32,000 bases of DNA from Pyrobaculum calidifontis JCM 11548 (GCF_000015805.1 NC_009073.1:270001-302000), one strand, 5' to 3'; positions 1 to 8,252 are shown, counted from the first letter of the stretch. Made by a program: numbers and translations. The notes: generated by a model not told the origin, from the sequence alone.

Positions 1-230
1 CCGCCCCCCGAGTAGAAGGCGTATCTGTCCATGGAGGCGGCCATGCGGTCCGCCAGCTTGACCACCTCCCTCGCCCACTCCGGCAGTTCGCCGTCTAGCG
101 GGCTCCCGCGGCGCACCTTGTTGAACATGTCCCAGGCCCGCTCCTCGTGGCCCTTTAGCCCCCACATTTTGTCGGGCGGGTCGTGGAAGAGGGCGTACGC
201 CTTTGTCAAAAAGAACTCGCGCAAGTCCAT
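1..230 (-). CDS. cmr2: Cas10/Cmr2 N-terminal fragment (HD domain region); gene continues beyond window start
   Basis: Not in the ORF track because it is truncated. My reverse-strand translation from ATG (228-230) gives MDLREFFLTKAYALFHDPPDKMWGLKGHEERAWDMF...VKLADRMAAS. This matches the Cmr2 N-terminal LHDPPDK / HEER / VKQAD pattern recalled from P. furiosus Cmr2. Confidence 0.8.
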   Translation of the reverse strand, partial: MDLREFFLTKAYALFHDPPDKMWGLKGHEERAWDMFNKVRRGSPLDGELPEWAREVVKLADRMAASMDRYAFYSGG

Positions 231-268
231 ACACTGGAAAAATTAAAATATTAAATCTTTTACAGTCT
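231..268. promoter_or_regulatory. 38-bp bidirectional AT-rich promoter region between cmr2 and cmr4
   Basis: Sequence is ACACTGGAAAAATTAAAATATTAAATCTTTTACAGTCT. The TATA-like core (243-257) lies about 20 bp from both start codons (230 minus, 269 plus). Confidence 0.55.
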
Positions 269-1171
269 ATGGACAGAGTTAGCAGGGGGCTCCTCATATA
301 CGCCGTCACGCCGCTGCACGTGGGCGTGGGGAGGGCCGAGGGGGCCCACGTCGACCTCCCAGTGCAGCGAGACGAGTTCGGCCTGCCCACCATATGGGCG
401 TCGTCGCTTAAGGGCAGCTTGAAGAGCCACGCGAGGAGCCGCTCGCCCAACGACGCCAAGCTCGTCTTCGGCCCCGACCCAGACGGGGGGCCTCCCGACC
501 ACGCCTCCGGCGCCGCCCTGTTAGACGCCAGGCTTTTGGCCATCCCGGCCCGCTCCGTGAGGGGGGTATGGGCCTACGTGACCTCTCCCCACATGTTGCG
601 GACCTTTGTAACCTACGCCGAGGCCCTCGGCGCGTTTCAGCCCCTTGCCGAAAAGGCCTGCGCCCTGCTTCAAGCTACTGCGGGCTTGAGCGAGGGGAGG
701 GCCGCGGTGTCGGACCACGCGCTCCTCCACGGGGGACGGCTCTTTCTGAACGAGGTGGAGCTCCAGGCGGAGGTGAAGAGGGAGGTGGGGGACTTCATAG
801 AGGAGTTAGACAAGGCGCTGGGGGGAGATCTCCCGAAGAAGGCCCTGGCCGTGGTCAGCGACGACGTTGCTAAAGAGGTGGTGAACAGGTCCACGCTTGT
901 CCAATACAGAGTGAGGCTGGACAGCGCTAGGAAGACAGTGGTAGAAGGCGCGCTGTGGAGCGAGGAGTACGTGCCCCAGTTCACCGTCTTCGCCTCAGGG
1001 GTGGTTTGTAGGCCCGTGGCGCTCAAAGACGCGACGATAAAGGCGGAGGAGATATGTGAAAAGTTTACAAAGCTGTTGACGAATGGGCAGGGGAACAAGG
1101 CCAACGTGTGGGTCGGGGGTAAGGAGACGATTGGGAAAGGGCTCATCTCGGTGTACATATGGACGAGGTAG
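269..1171 (+). CDS. cmr4: Cmr4 (RAMP, Cas7-family backbone subunit of type III-B complex)
   Basis: Motifs YAVTPLHVGVGR, HVDLPVQRD (catalytic Asp context), PTIWASSLKGSLKS, VRGVWAYVTSP, LWSEEYVP and GGKETIGKGL. ATG 269 is preferred over the track's TTG 203, which lies inside cmr2 and upstream of the TATA. Confidence 0.9.
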   Translation: MDRVSRGLLIYAVTPLHVGVGRAEGAHVDLPVQRDEFGLPTIWASSLKGSLKSHARSRSPNDAKLVFGPDPDGGPPDHASGAALLDARLLAIPARSVRGVWAYVTSPHMLRTFVTYAEALGAFQPLAEKACALLQATAGLSEGRAAVSDHALLHGGRLFLNEVELQAEVKREVGDFIEELDKALGGDLPKKALAVVSDDVAKEVVNRSTLVQYRVRLDSARKTVVEGALWSEEYVPQFTVFASGVVCRPVALKDATIKAEEICEKFTKLLTNGQGNKANVWVGGKETIGKGLISVYIWTR

Positions 1172-1584
1172 AGGTGGCAATTGAGTGCACCAAGGCGGTG
1201 GCCGAGGCGGCCGACGGCGACGTGAGGAGGAGGTACGCCCAGCGGTGCCGCGCGTTCCACGCCGAGATCTTCACCCTCGGGGTGGCCCACGTAGTGGCGC
1301 TAGCCGCGGCGCGGGCTGGCGCCAAGGCGGTGGAGGCGGGGCTTAGGCATTCCACCTGCGGCGAGGTGGTCAAGGCCGCGCTGGCGGAGGCCGGGGGCCC
1401 CGAGGAGAAGTCCTACGGCCTCTACGGCGCGGTACTGCTCTACGCGATGAGGAGGAGGGGCTATGTGAAGTCCACAACGCTCCTAGACGCGTTAGGCGAG
1501 CTGAAGGACCCCGCGCTAAACGCCGCGGCGTACCGAGCCGCCGAGTGGCTAAAGAGGCTTGCCGAGGCCTACTTTAAGGCATGA
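1159..1584 (+). CDS. cmr5: Cmr5 (small helical subunit, Cas11 family)
   Basis: 141-aa Ala-rich helical protein between cmr4 and cmr1. It overlaps the cmr4 end by 13 nt. Position, size and an LGVAHVVALAAAR / AAEWLKRLAEAY pattern fit Cmr5. Confidence 0.75.
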   Translation: MDEVEVAIECTKAVAEAADGDVRRRYAQRCRAFHAEIFTLGVAHVVALAAARAGAKAVEAGLRHSTCGEVVKAALAEAGGPEEKSYGLYGAVLLYAMRRRGYVKSTTLLDALGELKDPALNAAAYRAAEWLKRLAEAYFKA

Positions 1585-2744
1585 GGGCCCTCTTCAGAGC
1601 CACAATCGCCACCCCCCTCTCCCTGGGCTGGTACGAGCCGGGGGTCCTCGACGAGCGTTTCTACATCCGCCCCGCGTCTGTGAAAGGGGTTTGGCGCTGG
1701 TGGGCCAGGGCGTTTGTAGGCGGAGTGCTCTACGAGAGGGGGTGCCTAAAGGGGAGAAGGGGTAGGGACGTCTTCTTAGCCCCCACGCGGGAGGAGGCGG
1801 AGGCCGTGATGAGGCACGTTGGGAAGACGCTGGGGTTGGGATACGCCGGGGAGGAGGGGGCGCAGGCCTCACAGTTTAGGCTGAGGGTGAGAGTCCTCCG
1901 CAGGCCCGAGAAGGGCGTCGCCAGGCGCAGGGAGGGCCTCGTGAGAGTGGCCGGGCGGCAGGCCGCTCTGCAGAGGTTTAAGCTCCTCACGTTAAACAAC
2001 GACGTCGAATACGCAGTGGGGGGAGAGTTCGAGATTGAAGTAGAGGCGGAGGTGGACAGGAGGGTGTTCAACGCCTCTGTAGGCGTCCTCGCCGTGGCGC
2101 TTACGTTGAGCGGACTCGGCAAGGGCTCCCGCAAGGCCCTGGGAGACTTAGACGTAGTAGAGGCCAGGGGGGTCCAACTGCCCAACTCTCTCCCAAAGCT
2201 CGTAGAAGAGGTCAGGGCCGCCGTGGCGGAGCTGATTAGGGACAGGTGCCCGGGGAGGCCTCAGGGCCTGCCCCCAATGCCGGTGGTAACCGCGGAGAAG
2301 TGGAGCGGCGCAGAGCTCGCCGCGGTGTACGAGGCTGGGCTGGGCTTTGAGGACCTCCACAACTTCTTCCTCCGCCCCGCAAGGGCGAAGGCGCTGACGG
2401 GGAACTACGCCGCGCGCGACCCCCTGAGAGAGAAGCTGGCCGCGTGGGTCCTAGGCCTCCCGAGAGAGCAGAGGGGCACCGGCTACACGTCCCCCCTGGA
2501 GAGGAGGGCGTCCACCATCATCGCGGCCTACCACGGACAGCGGCACCTGGTGGGAGGCGGCCGCGGCTACTTGACCGTGTTAATCTCAGGCGACTGGCCC
2601 ACGGAGATTGAGTGGAGCGGCGCTGGCAGTGAGAGGATACGGATAGACGAGGCGAAGATCTTAGACGCGTATAAGACAGCGGTGGAGGAGTTCGCGGCAT
2701 ACGCCCAAAGGCTGAGGAGCAACGTCACGAAGATATGGCCGTGA
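1581..2744 (+). CDS. cmr1: Cmr1 (RAMP, Cas7-like)
   Basis: Has the IRPASVKGVWRWWARAF motif (Cmr1 hallmark xSIKGxxRWWxRA), plus LSGLGKGSRKALG and LGLPRE..RRAS. ATGA overlap with the cmr5 stop. Confidence 0.85.
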   Translation: MRALFRATIATPLSLGWYEPGVLDERFYIRPASVKGVWRWWARAFVGGVLYERGCLKGRRGRDVFLAPTREEAEAVMRHVGKTLGLGYAGEEGAQASQFRLRVRVLRRPEKGVARRREGLVRVAGRQAALQRFKLLTLNNDVEYAVGGEFEIEVEAEVDRRVFNASVGVLAVALTLSGLGKGSRKALGDLDVVEARGVQLPNSLPKLVEEVRAAVAELIRDRCPGRPQGLPPMPVVTAEKWSGAELAAVYEAGLGFEDLHNFFLRPARAKALTGNYAARDPLREKLAAWVLGLPREQRGTGYTSPLERRASTIIAAYHGQRHLVGGGRGYLTVLISGDWPTEIEWSGAGSERIRIDEAKILDAYKTAVEEFAAYAQRLRSNVTKIWP

Positions 2745-3529
2745 GGGGGAGGAGGGAGTTTGCGGGGGGAGACGACCCGCTGAGCCGCTACTGCCAAGAG
2801 GACTACAACGTCGTCTCTTGCATAAACCTCGCCTTCCTCGAGTGGATGCGGCAGAAAATCGGAAAGCCCGAGGGGGCACGGCAGAGGAGCGAGGGGCTAC
2901 CTGACTTCTCCCGCAGGGCCGTCTTGCACCTCTACAGACAGCCGCCGAGGGCCGCCCGCGAGGAGGTGGAGCGCTACGTACAAGCGATCTTCGACGCCGT
3001 CTCCCGCGCCTCTGCGATGGCGTTTAAGTACGAGTTCACCCTGGAGACCCCCCTCACAATACACACGAAGTGGCCCTACCTCCCCCTAGAGATAGGCCTG
3101 GCGTGGCACCCAATACTCAACGTCCCCTACATCCCCGCCAGCTCCCTCAAAGGCGCGGCCAGGGCCGCCGCCGTCAGCCCGCTGTGCGGCATAGAGCCAG
3201 AGGACCTGTTCGGAACGACGGAGGAGGAGGGCGACCTAATATTCACAGACGCCTATCCCACGAGGTGGGAGAGGCTGGTGGAGCCCGACGTAATTACGCC
3301 CCACTACAGAGAGACCGCCGGCGAAATCTCTGAAGCCCAAGCGAGGCCGGTCCCCCTAGTCTTCCCCGTGGTCCCAGCCGGCACCACCTTCACCTTCGTA
3401 GTCGCCTTTAGGCAGATGGTGGGCCAGGAGTGCTGGGGCGAGACTCTGCGGTGGTTGCAACAGGTGTTGACAAGGGGCCTGGGGGCAAAGACGCAGCTGA
3501 GCTACGGCGTCTTCAGAAGACAGACATGA
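2735..3529 (+). CDS. cmr6: Cmr6 (RAMP)
   Basis: Motifs NVPYIPASSLKGAARAAA, LIFTDAYP, VITPHY, PVPLVFPVVPAGTTFTFVV and C-terminal GLGAKTQLSYGVF, which together are the Cmr6 signature. 10-nt overlap with cmr1. Confidence 0.9.
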   Translation: MAVRGRREFAGGDDPLSRYCQEDYNVVSCINLAFLEWMRQKIGKPEGARQRSEGLPDFSRRAVLHLYRQPPRAAREEVERYVQAIFDAVSRASAMAFKYEFTLETPLTIHTKWPYLPLEIGLAWHPILNVPYIPASSLKGAARAAAVSPLCGIEPEDLFGTTEEEGDLIFTDAYPTRWERLVEPDVITPHYRETAGEISEAQARPVPLVFPVVPAGTTFTFVVAFRQMVGQECWGETLRWLQQVLTRGLGAKTQLSYGVFRRQT

Positions 3530-5220
3530 CGCCGGCCCCCTGCCACGAGGACCTAAAGGCCTACGACTACGTGCTAATAGTCGCACCAATGGGGGCGCTG
3601 GGCGGCTATAGAGAAGTTAAGTACGTCATACCAAGCCGGGGCAGTGTGGGCGAGGAAAAGGGCGGACAAGACAGCGATAAAAAACACTGGGCCGTAGCTT
3701 TTGCATTATATGATTATGTACAAGGCGTAAGTAAGGAATTATACGCATTTATTCAAGACACAATAATTGTAAATTTAGTCAAACCTCAAAATAAAGAAAA
3801 ACCAGTAAAACAAGAAATAGTTGAACAATTAAAGTTACTACTTAACTGTAATGATGACAGTTGTACCATAGATGAGAATTTAATTGACACTTTACTTAAA
3901 TTAGAAGGAAAGACATCGGAGGCTCAAAAAACTATAGATAGACTGAAAGAATTACGTAAAGAGGCAAAGATTCACTTTGTGCCAGGCGTCATCACTAGAT
4001 GGATAGAGGAAGTGTTAGTGACGTGGAGAGGCGGCAACCAGTTCTACGACGTGCTAAAGGGCACGCTTGTGTACTATATCCTGTCGGCGCTCAAGAAGAG
4101 TTGTCATAAAAGAATTGCCATATTTGTGGATACGTCACACGGCATAAACTACTTCGTCACCGCCTTAAAAGAAGCCGTGCCATTAGCCGCCACGCTTTAT
4201 CTTATCCACAGAATTGCCGACGGGGAGCCGGTGGAGAAACTCGACATATGCTCCTACAACTCTGACCCATATCCAACTCCATCAAGGGAGTGCCAGTCGC
4301 AAAAGGGCGGAGATGCGCAGAAAGATAAAGCTGAGCAAGCGGACAAAGAAACGCCGAGCCTAAAGATCCACTTAGTAGAAAGATTCGAAATGGTTTATAC
4401 TCACAAATCGGAGACTGAGACGTATACATCAATTAACCTATACCCGGTAAGGAGCCTTGTCGAAGACCTATTTCTCACCATGGGGTTAAAAGGCATTGTC
4501 AATTACTTAAATCAAAAGTGGGCACTCGGCGAAGATAAGTGGAAGAGCATAACGGCGTCTGTAGTTCTCTTTCTGCGCGGCATCCTTGGATGGAGCCTCA
4601 GCATCGCCCACAGCTCCAATGAGGACATGCTCGCTGAAATAGGCGAGACAGTGAAAAAGCGCGGAATTAGAATAGAGCAGAGAAGCGATAAGAATGAAAT
4701 AGCAATAACTTACATATGGGGTAGCAATAGAAAGATCGGCACAGACGTTGTAACCTTTGCCTCTATACACTCATCACTAAACAGATTAGGCAGATGTTTA
4801 GCAACGCCAAGAATGATAGAAGGGTCTCCATACGTGTGTTACCCGACTAAAGAGTTAGAGAAATACATAGAACAATTCTATGCGCCGCCCTACAGGGAGA
4901 TAAACCTAAACGAATTGGCTTCCGTAAGGAATTACCTAGAGGGGAAGAAGAAGTCAGACGAATCCTCTGTAAGAGACAGTCTAGAAGAGAAGTCGAGAGA
5001 TCGTGAGTATTGTAAGCCCTTGGAGGGGGGCAAGGGGTTTATATGTGGGAAGAGAGAAGACGCAGATCAGCAGGCCGAGGGCGCAAACCCGAGGAATTTC
5101 TACGCCCACGCCGGCCTCTCGTTCGAGCTTGATTGGGGCGCCCTCAAGGAGGAAGGAGAGCTCCTGTGCTTCAGCAAGGAGGTGGAGAGAGTCATAAACA
5201 TTTTAGCGAGTAGCGGGTGA
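3526..5220 (+). CDS. csx1: Csx1-family CARF + HEPN ancillary ribonuclease (DxTHG-family variant)
   Basis: ATG 3526 overlaps the cmr6 stop (ATGA). N-terminal Rossmann-like YVLIVAPMGALGG, then VDTSHGINYF (DxTHG-type motif with Ser), then C-terminal ANPRNFYAHAGLS (R-x4-H HEPN motif). The track ORF start 3430 lies inside cmr6. Confidence 0.8.
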   Translation: MTPAPCHEDLKAYDYVLIVAPMGALGGYREVKYVIPSRGSVGEEKGGQDSDKKHWAVAFALYDYVQGVSKELYAFIQDTIIVNLVKPQNKEKPVKQEIVEQLKLLLNCNDDSCTIDENLIDTLLKLEGKTSEAQKTIDRLKELRKEAKIHFVPGVITRWIEEVLVTWRGGNQFYDVLKGTLVYYILSALKKSCHKRIAIFVDTSHGINYFVTALKEAVPLAATLYLIHRIADGEPVEKLDICSYNSDPYPTPSRECQSQKGGDAQKDKAEQADKETPSLKIHLVERFEMVYTHKSETETYTSINLYPVRSLVEDLFLTMGLKGIVNYLNQKWALGEDKWKSITASVVLFLRGILGWSLSIAHSSNEDMLAEIGETVKKRGIRIEQRSDKNEIAITYIWGSNRKIGTDVVTFASIHSSLNRLGRCLATPRMIEGSPYVCYPTKELEKYIEQFYAPPYREINLNELASVRNYLEGKKKSDESSVRDSLEEKSRDREYCKPLEGGKGFICGKREDADQQAEGANPRNFYAHAGLSFELDWGALKEEGELLCFSKEVERVINILASSG

Positions 5221-5733
5221 GGACCCGAGGCGTATAAGCACGCCGCCGCACAGCTCCTCTCCGCCATTCAGCCTCTTTAAAGCGTCGTCTATCAACAGCG
5301 GGAAGAAGTCCATGGTATAGTGTATCTGCTGGAGCAATCCCACCACCAAACTTGCGACGGACCCATGCGGCGTGTACCCCTTCCTCACCCACACCCACTC
5401 GGCGTGGTGGTACACCGTGGCCTCTGTCTCAGGCCGCACGCTGGGAGCCGCCGTGGCCGCTGCTACAAGCGCAATGTGCGAAAGCTTGCACAACACCCCA
5501 CGCGCCTCCGAGTCGTCGAGTCTCTTCGCCGCAACTTCTACGTCGTATTGCCAGCCCCTCCACAGCTCTGGATACGTCACGCCCAGGTAGCATACGTCCC
5601 CCCTGTGGTTCATGTAAAGAGCATAGCTGCCGCAGTTGACGACGTCGCCGACTTCCCCCGGCGCCTCGGCGCAACCAAGCGCCTTAGCCGCGTCCTCTAC
5701 GTCTCCACAGTTGACGGCAACTAGGAGCACCAT
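5203..5733 (-). CDS. Hypothetical protein, 176 aa, last gene of the ATPase cassette
   Basis: ORF with balanced, protein-like composition from ATG 5733 (MVLLVAVNCGDVEDAAKALG...). The upstream 67 codons of the track ORF are Arg/Gly-rich and overlap other ORFs. No family recognised by eye. Its 3' end overlaps the csx1 3' end by 18 nt. Confidence 0.5.
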   Translation of the reverse strand: MVLLVAVNCGDVEDAAKALGCAEAPGEVGDVVNCGSYALYMNHRGDVCYLGVTYPELWRGWQYDVEVAAKRLDDSEARGVLCKLSHIALVAAATAAPSVRPETEATVYHHAEWVWVRKGYTPHGSVASLVVGLLQQIHYTMDFFPLLIDDALKRLNGGEELCGGVLIRLGSSPATR

Positions 5734-5834
5734 GAACACACTCTGCAGACCTTTTCTCCACAGTACGCCACTTCCCACCTCTTCCTCAGCGCATCTTCCA
5801 CGCCTTTGCCCGCGCCACGCAGTATCACCACCAT
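5721..5834 (-). CDS. Possible 37-aa micro-ORF (MVVILRGAGKGVEDALRKRWEVAYCGEKVCRVCSWCS)
   Basis: My own translation. The ATG is 3 nt after the ORF104 stop and in the same frame. It overlaps the ORF176 start by 13 nt. It could equally be a fragment of a decayed longer gene. Confidence 0.2.
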   Translation of the reverse strand: MVVILRGAGKGVEDALRKRWEVAYCGEKVCRVCSWCS

Positions 5835-5837
5835 GCG

Positions 5838-6152
5838 CTAACCTTGTCCTGAGAAGTTCTGGAATTTGGCATCTACGTCCTTTTCCAGCTTTGCCGGCTC
5901 CTTCAACGTCCTTGAGCCAGGCTGGACGTTGCATCTACATTCAATTACCATCGCTATGCGCTTTGTCCCGAGAATCTCAACTAGATAGCAGTCTGGCATC
6001 TTATCCCCCACCACCTCGCATGCAGGTATTTTGCTCGTGTTGTTCTGGTCGGGCGTGCATACACATATCCGCTTATCACATGTAAAACCAAGCTCGGAGC
6101 CGCAAGCGAGGGCCTGTATGTTTGTGAGCTTAAGTACGGGATATTGCGGCAT
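5838..6152 (-). CDS. Hypothetical Cys-rich protein, 104 aa
   Basis: The ATG overlaps the ATPase 3' end by 23 nt, suggesting translational coupling. It has 8 Cys residues. G+C is lower than in the neighbours. No family recognised. Confidence 0.4.
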   Translation of the reverse strand: MPQYPVLKLTNIQALACGSELGFTCDKRICVCTPDQNNTSKIPACEVVGDKMPDCYLVEILGTKRIAMVIECRCNVQPGSRTLKEPAKLEKDVDAKFQNFSGQG

Positions 6153-6966
6153 AGGCCAGCCTCTCCCTCTCGGCGTACTTCGCTACGTCGAATACGTCCT
6201 TTATGGGGTGGAAGACCCCGCCGTCGACGTAGTAGACCCTCCACCCGGCGTCAAGCGCCGCCTTTAGAGTGGCCATTAAGTGAGACTCAGCGATTACTAA
6301 AGCGCTGGTCTCCTTCAACACTTGTATGAGGTCGACTGCCAAGTCGTAGTGGAGCCCCGCCTCGAAGGCCTCTACGAGGAGCACGTCTGCGCGCCGCGCG
6401 GCGATGAGCATGGCCAAGGCCCTCCTATAGCCGTAGGCGAGGGTCTGCACGTCGATCCACCTCCCCCCGACCTTCACCCGGCCGCCGTACACGTCCTCCA
6501 CCCCCGCCACTGCGCCCACCCTCCTAAGCCACTCGGCGTCTTCGGGGTCCTCCACCTCTAGGTCGGCGCCCTCGCACAAGTGGAACCGCCAGCTCTCCCA
6601 CGCCGCCGTGCAGGGCCCCACATAGGCAACGCGCGCTTCGATGAGCTTGAATGGCGGATACCCCTGCTTCTCGTTATCTACCCACACCGACGTATCGCGG
6701 CCTATTTCCAGCCTGTACCTCCGCCCGTCGACCACCGCCTCTACGGCCCCCGCCTCGGCCCCGCGGCGGACCCAGAGGGCCAGATTATCGGGCACGAGGC
6801 CCCGCAGAACGCCGCCGGATATTGCGTAGAGCAACGCCGCTACGCCGAGTATGAGGGAACTCTTGCCAGCCCCGTTGGGCCCGTAGAGGAGGGTCGGCCC
6901 CCCAACCTCTACGCACTGGCCGCCCACGGCCAAGAAGTCCCTCAAGCACACCCTTTCAATACGCAT
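6130..6966 (-). CDS. Minimal ABC/SMC-type (AAA_15/AAA_21-like) ATPase, 278 aa
   Basis: Walker A GPNGAGKSS; signature-like LAYGYRRALAML; Walker B region VLLVEAFEAGLH, where EA replaces the canonical DE; H-loop VIAESH. Confidence 0.8.
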   Translation of the reverse strand: MRIERVCLRDFLAVGGQCVEVGGPTLLYGPNGAGKSSLILGVAALLYAISGGVLRGLVPDNLALWVRRGAEAGAVEAVVDGRRYRLEIGRDTSVWVDNEKQGYPPFKLIEARVAYVGPCTAAWESWRFHLCEGADLEVEDPEDAEWLRRVGAVAGVEDVYGGRVKVGGRWIDVQTLAYGYRRALAMLIAARRADVLLVEAFEAGLHYDLAVDLIQVLKETSALVIAESHLMATLKAALDAGWRVYYVDGGVFHPIKDVFDVAKYAERERLAYAAISRT

Positions 6967-7052
6967 TGCACATGACTCGTCGGCGATATAAAAATTAACG
7001 CCTTCGCCCCAGGGCCGGCAGAAAGGCTTAAAAGAGGTGTGGATGACAGTCT

Positions 7053-7640
7053 ATGGACGACTTTAGGCGCCAGTTGGAGGAGGTTAAGAGGGCGTTTAGG
7101 GAGAGCGTGGCCGCGGGGATTAGGGAGGGGGTGGAGGGCGTGTTGCAGGAGATGCGGGGGATTATAGAGGTCTTGGAGGAGGTCTCCCTAATGATTGACA
7201 GGTACTCTAAGACTCTCCGCAACCACTCCTCCCTGCTGGAGGCCCACCTCAACGCGTTGAAGGAGCACACAGACACTATGAGGGCCGTGTCGGCGGCGGT
7301 GAGGGAGGTCAACGCCTCTCTGGGGGAGCTCATGGCCCTAGTGCGTGTGTCGCTGGAGCGCATGGGGGATATGGCGAGGGATTTTGCCCTCGCACTGTGC
7401 AAGGCGCTTGGGGGCGAGGCAGAGGAGGCGGGGCCGGGCCTCGCGCTGTGCCACATCGGCTGGGCAACCCACCTCATATACGCCGCGGCCGTGGCGACGG
7501 TGGAACACGTGGAGAAGCTGAAGGGCATAGATGCGGGCGGGGCGAAGAAGGTGCTCGCGGCCTTGATTGCGCATAGAGACGCAGTGGAGGCAGCCAAGGC
7601 CCTGGGGATAGAAATCGCGGCGGGAGGCGTATCGCCCTAG
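7053..7640 (+). CDS. Hypothetical coiled-coil protein, 195 aa
   Basis: The N-terminal ~110 aa are heptad-like and Glu/Leu/Arg-rich (MDDFRRQLEEVKRAFRES...). The C-terminus is an Ala-rich helical region. A TATA-like CTTAAAAG lies about 25 bp upstream. No family recognised. Confidence 0.6.
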   Translation: MDDFRRQLEEVKRAFRESVAAGIREGVEGVLQEMRGIIEVLEEVSLMIDRYSKTLRNHSSLLEAHLNALKEHTDTMRAVSAAVREVNASLGELMALVRVSLERMGDMARDFALALCKALGGEAEEAGPGLALCHIGWATHLIYAAAVATVEHVEKLKGIDAGGAKKVLAALIAHRDAVEAAKALGIEIAAGGVSP

Positions 7641-7744: not shown

Positions 7745-7908
7745 CCTTCTACCCCCCTTGTGTATTCTCAGTGGCTGGCCAGCGGGCTGGCGGACTTCGC
7801 GGGGATACAAGCTGAGTTTCTACCCCCTTTGGGGATTCTCTGAGTGGGGCAGTTTAAGTTTACCTCGGTTTACACCCAACTTCCTTTCTACCCCCTTTGG
7901 GGATTCTC
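7745..7908 (-). CRISPR. Mini-CRISPR array with 3 repeats (2 near-identical, 1 degenerate) and 2 spacers
   Basis: Plus-strand repeat (C/G)TTTCTACCCCCTTTGGGGATTCTC occurs at 7816-7840 and 7884-7908. A degenerate copy at 7745-7769 matches 21 of 25 positions. Spacers are 46 nt (7770-7815) and 43 nt (7841-7883). The minus-strand reading GAGAATCCCCAAAGGGGGTAGAAAG ends in GAAAG like crenarchaeal repeats, and the degenerate repeat is then leader-distal. Confidence 0.7.
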
Positions 7909-8252
7909 CGCTCATGTCCTCGGCTCTTGTGGTTTTTTAAGTTTTTCCCTCGTTTTTGTGGGGTCGGCGCGTCCTTTTCAACCCCCTCTTTACATACACG
8001 TACGTCCGTTGTCCCGCGTTGTGAGACGCCATTCTTCACAGTGCCACTTACGCAGACGTCGTTGTAAGCGCGCCATTCTTCGCGGTCACAATCGCAGTGT
8101 CACGTTTGTATGTCTGTCAAGGAGGGTTGTCCGCAGAAAGTGTGCACATCGGCGTTTGCCGCTGTGTTGTATGTCGTATTTGCTCTTGACCAAGACCTAT
8201 ATTGGCTTTTTCGTTTACACATTTCGATGTTTGTAAAGTGGGACGAGCATAA
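7909..8252 (-). promoter_or_regulatory. Putative CRISPR leader with TATA-like TTAAAAAA (complement of 7933-7940)
   Basis: AT-rich, ORF-poor stretch flanking the non-degenerate end of the array. The TATA-like element lies 25-32 nt upstream of the first repeat on the minus strand. Confidence 0.35.
8017..8084. repeat. Imperfect tandem direct repeat in the putative leader
   Basis: CGTTGTGAGACGCCATTCTTCACA (8017-8040) versus CGTTGTAAGCGCGCCATTCTTCGCG (8060-8084), sharing the core CGCCATTCTTC. A third CGTTGT occurs at 8007. Confidence 0.4.

Follow-up and report, generated by a model that had tools for sequence, protein, structure and literature searches.

The RecF-associated protein (RFas) was defined by Vestergaard et al. 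2014 (PMC3973734), and its pairing with an ATPase was published as "Cas_RecF + RFas" in 2014 and 2018. According to Shah et al. 2019 (PMC6546367), the RFas clusters are without database matches, carry a proposed N-terminal transmembrane signal, and are among the five families most strongly associated with type III systems by association score. The genes of one of these clusters, cluster 108, were described as immediately adjoining the ATPase genes of cluster 17, with Pcal_0278 as an example locus, and the ATPase was speculated to supply the energy for target cleavage (PMC6546367). The subject of the present analysis is the minus-strand gene cassette of Pyrobaculum calidifontis JCM 11548 that contains this locus and is situated beside the cmr genes of a type III-B CRISPR system. 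The DNA analyzed was a stretch of 32,000 nucleotides (nt) from this genome (NC_009073.1:270001-302000), which is called the window in the following, and positions are counted from its first letter.

The last open reading frame (ORF) of the cassette, ORF176, was 100% identical to Pcal_0278 and matched the PADLOC profile PDLC01070 ("cas_RFas, cluster 17 associated") with an expectation value (E) of 3e-56 over profile positions 1 to 136 of 137. This RFas profile match was found together with an adjoining ATPase of the ABC/SMC/RecF type and a crenarchaeal type III neighbor. The cassette is an already catalogued accessory module, Cas_RecF/RFas, here of a type III-B (Cmr) CRISPR system. Judged by adjacency and motifs and not by a cluster 17 profile, its ATPase fits the published Cas_RecF partner. 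The original prediction, which was made from the sequence alone, had proposed a new defense module and had granted a recognizable fold to the ATPase only. The module is not new, since the pair was published in 2014 and 2018 and ORF176 is the exemplar of cluster 108, and the strong profile match places ORF176 in a known family as well.

The cassette and the module of the two papers (Vestergaard 2014; Shah 2019, clusters 17 plus 83, 84, 108, and 211) are the same, here beside a III-B cassette in a Thermoproteales genome. There are also differences. The papers describe an ATPase plus at least one RFas, whereas a fixed order of ATPase, a Cys-rich PD-(D/E)xK-like protein, and RFas was observed here, and the N-terminal membrane anchor given for cluster 108 contrasts with an RFas that is predicted to be soluble. 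The searched literature contained no experimental work on Cas_RecF/RFas and no later functional study of the RFas module, and four refinements were likewise not found there: the nuclease assignment, the fixed order of the triad, a soluble RFas with an unmatched fold, and the split gene. The features of the cassette, all on the minus strand, are as follows.

5203..5733, minus strand: RFas (Pcal_0278, ORF176), 176 amino acids (aa), exemplar of cas_RFas cluster 108
5721..6152, minus strand: Cys-rich PD-(D/E)xK-like (VRR-NUC-like) putative small nuclease, a single gene made of ORF104 and ORF37 joined
5721-5834, minus strand: ORF37, C-terminal part of the middle gene, 37 aa, from ORF calling
5838-6152, minus strand: ORF104, N-terminal part of the middle gene, 104 aa, from ORF calling
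5838..5840, minus strand: in-frame TAG splitting the middle gene, next to CGC (5835-5837) and then the ATG of ORF37 (5832-5834)
6130..6966, minus strand: ABC/SMC-type ATPase, 278 aa, annotated as "AAA family ATPase" in P. calidifontis
6985..6996, minus strand: TATA-like A/T-rich box TTTTTATAT (minus-strand letters), about 24 nt upstream of the start codon (ATG) of the ATPase, read from the sequence

The three genes and their products

The coordinates predicted for four minus-strand ORFs, with overlaps of 23 and 13 nt and a gap of 3 nt, were all reproduced by ORF calling, and a tightly coupled operon headed by a small ABC/AAA_21-type ATPase was also found (Pfam AAA_21, 1.4e-10; PADLOC AriA, 5e-11). 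Since the TATA-like box precedes the ATPase ATG by about 24 nt, a leaderless operon transcript may be inferred as compatible with its position. The number of genes had to be corrected from four to three, because ORF104 and ORF37 are in one reading frame with only the TAG and a single CGC codon between them, and because the metagenome contig L001, with about 88% nucleotide identity to the window, has a sense codon (Arg) at the TAG site, so that a single 144-aa product spans everything between the start of ORF104 and the stop of ORF37. ORF104 and ORF37 are thus one real gene, and ORF37 was rejected as an independent small gene, being the C terminus of the middle gene. A second metagenome contig, L002, which is near-identical to the window, keeps the TAG, and contigs L003 and L019, with an ATPase 41% identical, possess a single 140-aa middle gene with no stop. 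Only the P. calidifontis lineage carries the TAG.

Between the window and L001, the ORF104 part contains an in-frame 3-nt indel, and 12 of 12 Cys residues of the middle gene are conserved. The Nei-Gojobori ratio of nonsynonymous to synonymous substitutions (dN/dS) was 0.19 for either part of the middle gene (ORF104 and ORF37), 0.13 for the C terminus of the ATPase, 0.29 for RFas, and 0.31 for Csx1. By these ratios and the in-frame indel, coding of the cassette ORFs is better than chance. ORF104 is not called in the NCBI annotation, and a word-index search of 5.8 billion proteins returned identical copies only; such searches gave 3, 1, and 7 matches for the cassette proteins, too shallow for structure prediction. 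For P. calidifontis, the annotation may be amended by a missed split nuclease gene and by the start of Pcal_0278, which is wrong as described below. As a separate observation, the proportion of synonymous differences (pS) between window and L001 was 0.58 in the ORF104 part, two to three times that of the ATPase, RFas, and csx1 on the same contigs (0.20 to 0.24). Exchange of the middle gene through recombination is one possible reason, an unusually rapid evolution another.

Metagenomes were scanned with the C-terminal half of the ATPase, which yielded 80 loci for local ORF calling and clustering. At 24 of these loci, from about eight lineages, the ATPase is followed by a Cys-rich protein of about 135 to 190 aa and then by an RFas-like protein of 170 to 220 aa; in L003, L005, and L019, the corresponding genes have 140 to 182 aa and 179 to 199 aa. 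The junctions between ATPase and putative nuclease are mostly overlaps (-4 to -26 nt), and most of those further downstream are overlaps or short gaps as well, which indicates translational coupling. A link to the type III-B CRISPR system, as originally predicted, is borne out by the gene neighborhood of the ATPase homologues: a cmr gene was the immediate neighbor in all 15 triad loci whose upstream sequence extended over 300 nt or more. The ATPase is co-directional after cmr6 in eight of the 15, with gaps of -23 to +63 nt that imply co-transcription, and divergent from cmr4 or cmr1 in the other seven, with gaps of 38 to 212 nt. The arrangement in P. calidifontis is exceptional in being inverted, with csx1 between the cassette and cmr6. 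No triad copy away from cmr genes was seen in the lineages sampled, and no housekeeping counterpart of the triad was found.

The middle gene was characterized by an alignment of 16 representatives. Their identity to the copy of L001 is only 18 to 37%, compared with 63% for the window fragment. Residues D35, C45, D54, and E72 are invariant and C17, C32, and K97 near-invariant in the 16 sequences, within the pattern CxCxxD … (P)D-hhhh … hhhh-E-x-K … KFxN … hhVhhS … C(S/A) at the C terminus. At position +2 of E72, Lys is present in nine and Thr in five of the 16 sequences, with Arg in the window copy. The core of that copy reads CVCTPD…MPDCY…IECRC, so that Arg takes the place of the ExK lysine and the catalytic Lys is missing, a replacement confined to the P. 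calidifontis lineage in this alignment. The homologue of L074 matched Pfam VRR_NUC with E 2.3e-4 exactly over PD…EFK, at 21.6 bits versus a gathering score of 23.8, and one member matched a PHROG "endonuclease" with E 0.011. Searches of the family against NCBIfam gave nothing, and the protein matched none of the cas_RFas profiles of PADLOC. The proteins at this first position after the ATPase fall into five sequence clusters, and the top-ranked profile-profile links among them are weak (E 4e-5 to 8e-3, probabilities 5 to 70%). Because the recurring D…PD…ExK pattern has the layout of a nuclease core, the middle gene probably encodes a PD-(D/E)xK nuclease, although with a confidence that is only somewhat above even. 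The original prediction could not place ORF104 in the PD-(D/E)xK family by eye, a point that is not upheld: the D…PD…ExK pattern emerged once ORF37 had been joined and homologues had been aligned. No nuclease family was matched above threshold.

The window copy of the middle gene contains 12 Cys residues, among them a C-terminal CxxxxCxxCxxC cluster, CGEKVCRVCSWCS, on the ORF37 part, and most of its Cys residues are not conserved across the family. Three N-terminal Cys and one at the extreme C terminus do recur, which suggests a metal centre tying the termini together. The nuclease domain of Cas4 and AddB is stapled by Cys ligands in this manner. Due to the amber codon, the C-terminal ligand would reside on a separate polypeptide in the window. 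The D…PD…ExK core is common to VRR-NUC and Cas4-type nucleases, and the Cys at both ends recall the Cas4/AddB staple, but the arrangement is reversed compared to Cas4 (three N-terminal and one C-terminal here), the middle protein is much smaller (about 140 aa), and no QxxxY motif as in RecB/Cas4 was seen.

The ATPase matched Pfam AAA_21 above the gathering score, with further Pfam matches of the P-loop to AAA_29, AAA_27, AAA_23, and SMC_N. Its best PADLOC matches were AriA, mad3, NsnB, AbiLi, and PtuA, and the matches to defense profiles are limited to the N- and C-terminal nucleotide-binding motifs. The window copy has a Walker A motif GPNGAGKS, a signature LAYGYRR, an atypical Walker B motif VLLVEAFEAGLH, and an H-loop ESH. 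Six independent homologues keep Walker A GPNGxGKS, signature L(S/A)YGxRR, and H-loop E(S/T)H, together with the unusual Walker B hhhhE-(A/N/G)-(F/L)-E-A-G-L-H, which has Glu in place of the usual Asp and Ala, Asn, or Gly in place of the catalytic Glu. Because this Walker B motif is without the usual catalytic Glu, hydrolysis would be slow and the protein would act as an ATP-binding switch. Walker A and signature are only about 120 residues apart, which leaves no coiled coil. The RecF model TIGR00611 was matched at E 0.08 with 12 bits versus a cut-off of 172, which speaks against RecF membership; the name "Cas_RecF" reflects similarity at the P-loop level only. No relatives were found among viral contigs of IMG/VR, and the proteins that a scan of a genome collection with the Walker A pattern brought up (L006-L018) were all unrelated P-loop proteins of bacteria.

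A second sub-group of the ATPase with 230 to 260 aa (L033, L034, L041, L042, L052, L055, L092, and others) was observed with different small partners. The gene after the ATPase encodes an unrelated 136-aa protein ("MIVKGSLHSFLFE…"), or else small genes of other kinds follow; cmr genes are absent from the vicinity, and the flanks contain large ORFs that resemble primases or helicases. This sub-group may be a mobile-element-borne version of the ATPase module.

With respect to RFas, the proteins at the second position share an N-terminal M-x-L-h-h strand, a central hhA-h-h-T-x-x-P with a near-invariant P97, and then a W/Y-rich strand; among 18 of them, eight matched PDLC01070 and four matched PDLC01095, the second cas_RFas model. 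RFas is a very small family, since phmmer identified nine relatives only in 1.84 billion representative proteins. The AlphaFold2 model from nine sequences had a predicted local distance difference test (pLDDT) of 88.1 and a predicted template modeling score (pTM) of 0.86, with the element order b1-a1-b2-b3-b4-a2-a3-b5-b6-a4-a5-b7-b8, and a model from four near-identical sequences (pLDDT 52.7) was discarded. Foldseek searches of the model against PDB and BFVD gave no match, comparison of the family with Pfam and PDB sequences gave nothing meaningful, and neither CARF nor SAVED was detected in RFas. The model predicts a soluble alpha/beta protein. An N-terminal membrane anchor was rejected, the hydrophobic stretch being only six residues long and modeled as a buried beta-strand with a block-mean pLDDT of 92 for residues 1 to 10.

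ORF176 begins at M68 of a 243-aa ORF called at 5203-5934, and the NCBI entry of Pcal_0278 has 191 aa, with its GTG start at 5778. Residue 69 of the 243-aa ORF is where the cas_RFas profile match begins, and therefore the M68 start (5733) is favored over the NCBI start. All homologues start at this Met, which results in a 13-nt overlap with the end of the upstream gene, and the 243-aa and 191-aa versions were rejected. Two further observations concern RFas. A 1123-aa, highly repetitive protein (P0016), which is not archaeal-looking, matches RFas residues 86 to 153 in six tandem stretches with E 3e-16 and was rejected as a relative because it is a probable spurious repeat match. In L002 (510-995), a 45-nt in-frame deletion removes the conserved YLGVTYPELW strand of RFas (T53, W58), which may point to real decay or to an artefact of the assembly.

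Function of the module

Taken together, the cassette may be an ATP-controlled nuclease module that serves Cmr and is encoded by a translationally coupled three-gene operon; a rough probability of 0.6 was assigned to this reading. An ABC/SMC-type ATPase without coiled coil would probably dimerize on ATP. The middle protein would be a Cys-rich PD-(D/E)xK nuclease of about 140 aa, with CxC…C and the C-terminal Cys probably holding a metal centre, and RFas would probably be an adaptor or a regulator or sensor. The three proteins would form an ATP-gated nuclease complex as in other pairs of ABC ATPases and nucleases in defense, and this complex would provide Cmr with an arm that degrades nucleic acid, probably DNA, after Cmr has recognized the target transcript. 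An amber codon and the change from ExK to ExR in the nuclease of P. calidifontis would mean that in this strain the module either works as a split protein or is decaying.

Several observations weigh against such a nuclease module in the service of Cmr. The ATP-gated complex is inferred by analogy with PARIS, Septu, Lamassu, NurA-HerA, and SbcCD, and complex formation and substrate of the triad are purely so. With Pfam and PADLOC, the three proteins showed no CARF or SAVED domain and no other recognized connection to Cas10 signaling. Searches of PDB sequences with the profile and with single sequences of the middle gene gave nothing, the VRR_NUC match came from one of 16 members and was below the gathering score, and one sub-clade of the family carries ExT instead of ExK in addition to ExR in the window copy. 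The Walker B pattern was also used as a search pattern in the metagenomes, so that its conservation there is partly by construction and is independent only in the six proteins. Finally, the 24 loci include many near-duplicates, and all of the approximately eight lineages are hot-spring Thermoproteales-like contigs.

The evidence may also be read in other ways. The triad may be a stand-alone ATPase-nuclease defense similar to PARIS, Septu, or Lamassu, which senses infection by itself and merely has a Cmr island as its neighbor. The PADLOC matches of the ATPase from AriA to PtuA would agree with this, as would the three proteins in which no CARF, SAVED, or signal-sensing domain was detected, and the cassette of the window, which is convergent to cmr-csx1 and has its own TATA-like box. 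This is nevertheless unlikely when the immediate cmr neighbor in 15 of 15 loci, eight of them co-directional after cmr6, is considered together with the published association scores, by which RFas clusters belong to the top five type III-linked families (Shah et al. 2019, PMC6546367), and with a triad that was never seen away from cmr in about eight lineages. Alternatively, the middle protein may be a subunit that binds Zn or Fe and acts as a DNA/RNA-binding or scaffold protein, with the module serving Cmr as a clamp, loader, or remodeller driven by ATP and not as an enzyme that degrades. The 12 Cys residues and the C-terminal CxxxxCxxCxxC knuckle of the window copy point in this direction, no nuclease family was matched above threshold, the ExK lysine is Thr in one large sub-clade, and an ATPase that energizes target cleavage was speculated by Shah et al. 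(PMC6546367). D35, D54, and E72 are, however, invariant across clusters with no more than 18 to 26% identity to the reference copy, the spacing of the acidic residues and their hydrophobic context fit the PD…(D/E)xK strands just where the sole Pfam family match falls, and most of the window Cys are not conserved family-wide, which makes a non-nuclease improbable.

A question limited to P. calidifontis is whether the nuclease gene is a pseudogene and the module a non-functional, decaying remnant. This is a serious possibility, although it is rated below even: the TAG at 5838-5840 is present in the reference genome and in L002 while relatives have an intact ORF, the catalytic Lys became Arg only in this lineage, the in-frame deletion of L002 takes conserved RFas residues, and ORF104 was left unannotated by NCBI. 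Against decay stand the intact ATPase and RFas with dN/dS of 0.13 and 0.29 and the ratio of 0.19 in both halves of the nuclease gene. Moreover, because an ATG follows one codon after the TAG, re-initiation could yield two fragments that reassemble. Decay would in any case bear on this strain only and not on the nature of the module. In extension of the ATP-controlled nuclease module, RFas might be a new sensor of Cas10 products or a docking subunit for Cmr that activates an ATP-gated PD-(D/E)xK nuclease clearing invader DNA. Such an effector arm of type III systems without CARF or SAVED is doubtful at present; if true, it would be a Cmr-coupled counterpart of ATPase-nuclease immunity of the PARIS or Lamassu type.

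Surroundings of the cassette

The CRISPR context of the cassette consists of one feature on either side.

203..5220, plus strand: cmr4-cmr5-cmr1-cmr6-csx1 (Pcal_0273-0277), convergent with the cassette
7746..7908, minus strand: CRISPR array "Crispr3" (III-B repeat family), three 24-nt repeats

Both agree with Bernick et al. 2012 (PMC3396285), who list Crispr3 on the minus strand at 277746-277908 of the genome and Pcal_0273-0277 as cmr4, cmr5, cmr1, cmr6, and csx1. The stops of csx1 and RFas overlap tail to tail by 18 nt, and a Pfam search of the window proteins confirmed the RAMP domain of cmr6 and the CARF domain of Csx1. Mechanical calling gave csx1 as a 596-aa ORF (3430-5220, plus strand) with a GTG start and a 100-nt overlap with cmr6. 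Its true start is probably further downstream, because residue 49 is the first to be covered by the CARF match and the orthologue in L001 has 546 aa.

Contrary to what had been stated, the cassette is not directly beside the array, because a divergent ORF of 195 aa intervenes (7053-7640, plus strand). This coiled-coil ORF lies between the ATPase and Crispr3 and has a weak, sub-threshold likeness to the C-terminal tail of ZorA (NCBIfam 2.4e-5, 23 bits versus a cut-off of 190; PADLOC ZorA 8.5e-5). Beside the triad of other loci, this ORF is not conserved. The Crispr3 repeat at 7746-7769 is degenerate, with 83% identity to the other two, and would be the leader-distal, oldest repeat, given the minus-strand array. 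A 16-nt direct repeat, CGCCATTCTTCACAGT / CGCCATTCTTCGCGGT, is present at 8027-8042 and 8071-8086, 44 nt apart, on that side of Crispr3 which has the higher coordinates; for an array on the minus strand, the leader would be expected there.

Comparison with ATPase-nuclease systems

An analogy with defense pairs of an ATPase and a small effector had been drawn in the original prediction and is reasonable. PARIS (the ABC ATPase AriA and the TOPRIM nuclease AriB) and Septu (PtuA and the HNH protein PtuB) also combine, in operons with overlapping genes, a small AAA_15/AAA_21 ATPase without coiled coil and a small effector with nuclease function. The ATPase matched AriA best (5e-11) and PtuA more weakly (7e-5 at best). 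The partners differ: with Pfam and PADLOC, no TOPRIM or AriB match was obtained for ORF104, ORF37, or ORF176, so that the TOPRIM/DUF4435 partner AriB is absent, and no HNH or PtuB match was obtained among the window proteins, so that PtuB is absent as well. The triad differs further from both systems by its third gene (RFas), its fixed adjacency to cmr, and a Walker B motif hhhhE-(A/N/G)-F-E instead of hhhhDEPE. The fused TOPRIM domain of Gabija and OLD is missing; the 278-aa ATPase ends past the H-loop region, and GajA was matched with E 0.004 on residues 1 to 40 only.

Lamassu consists of the SMC-like ATPase LmuB, LmuC, and the effector LmuA, which is often a Cap4-type PD-(D/E)xK nuclease. 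The likeness would be that of three parts: an ATPase of the SMC/Rad50 family, a small adaptor, and an effector of the PD-(D/E)xK type. The cassette ATPase with its 278 aa is, in contrast, without a long coiled coil, gene order and sizes differ, and no LmuA, LmuB, or LmuC profile was among the PADLOC matches listed. ATPase-nuclease pairs inside archaeal CRISPR-cas cassettes are known as NurA-HerA and SbcC-SbcD, also without CARF (Vestergaard 2014, PMC3973734, Table 5). Their protein families are unrelated to the triad, and those pairs are paralogues of known machines for DNA-end processing.

Type III CRISPR biology centers on Cas10 signaling to CARF or SAVED effectors. Cas_RecF/RFas is among the gene sets most strongly associated with type III systems in Crenarchaeota (Shah 2019) and is without such a sensor domain. 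Its position in several lineages is compatible with co-transcription with cmr6, and the fixed triad of ATPase, putative PD-(D/E)xK nuclease, and RFas turns an entry of "unknown small proteins" into a concrete and testable biochemical hypothesis.

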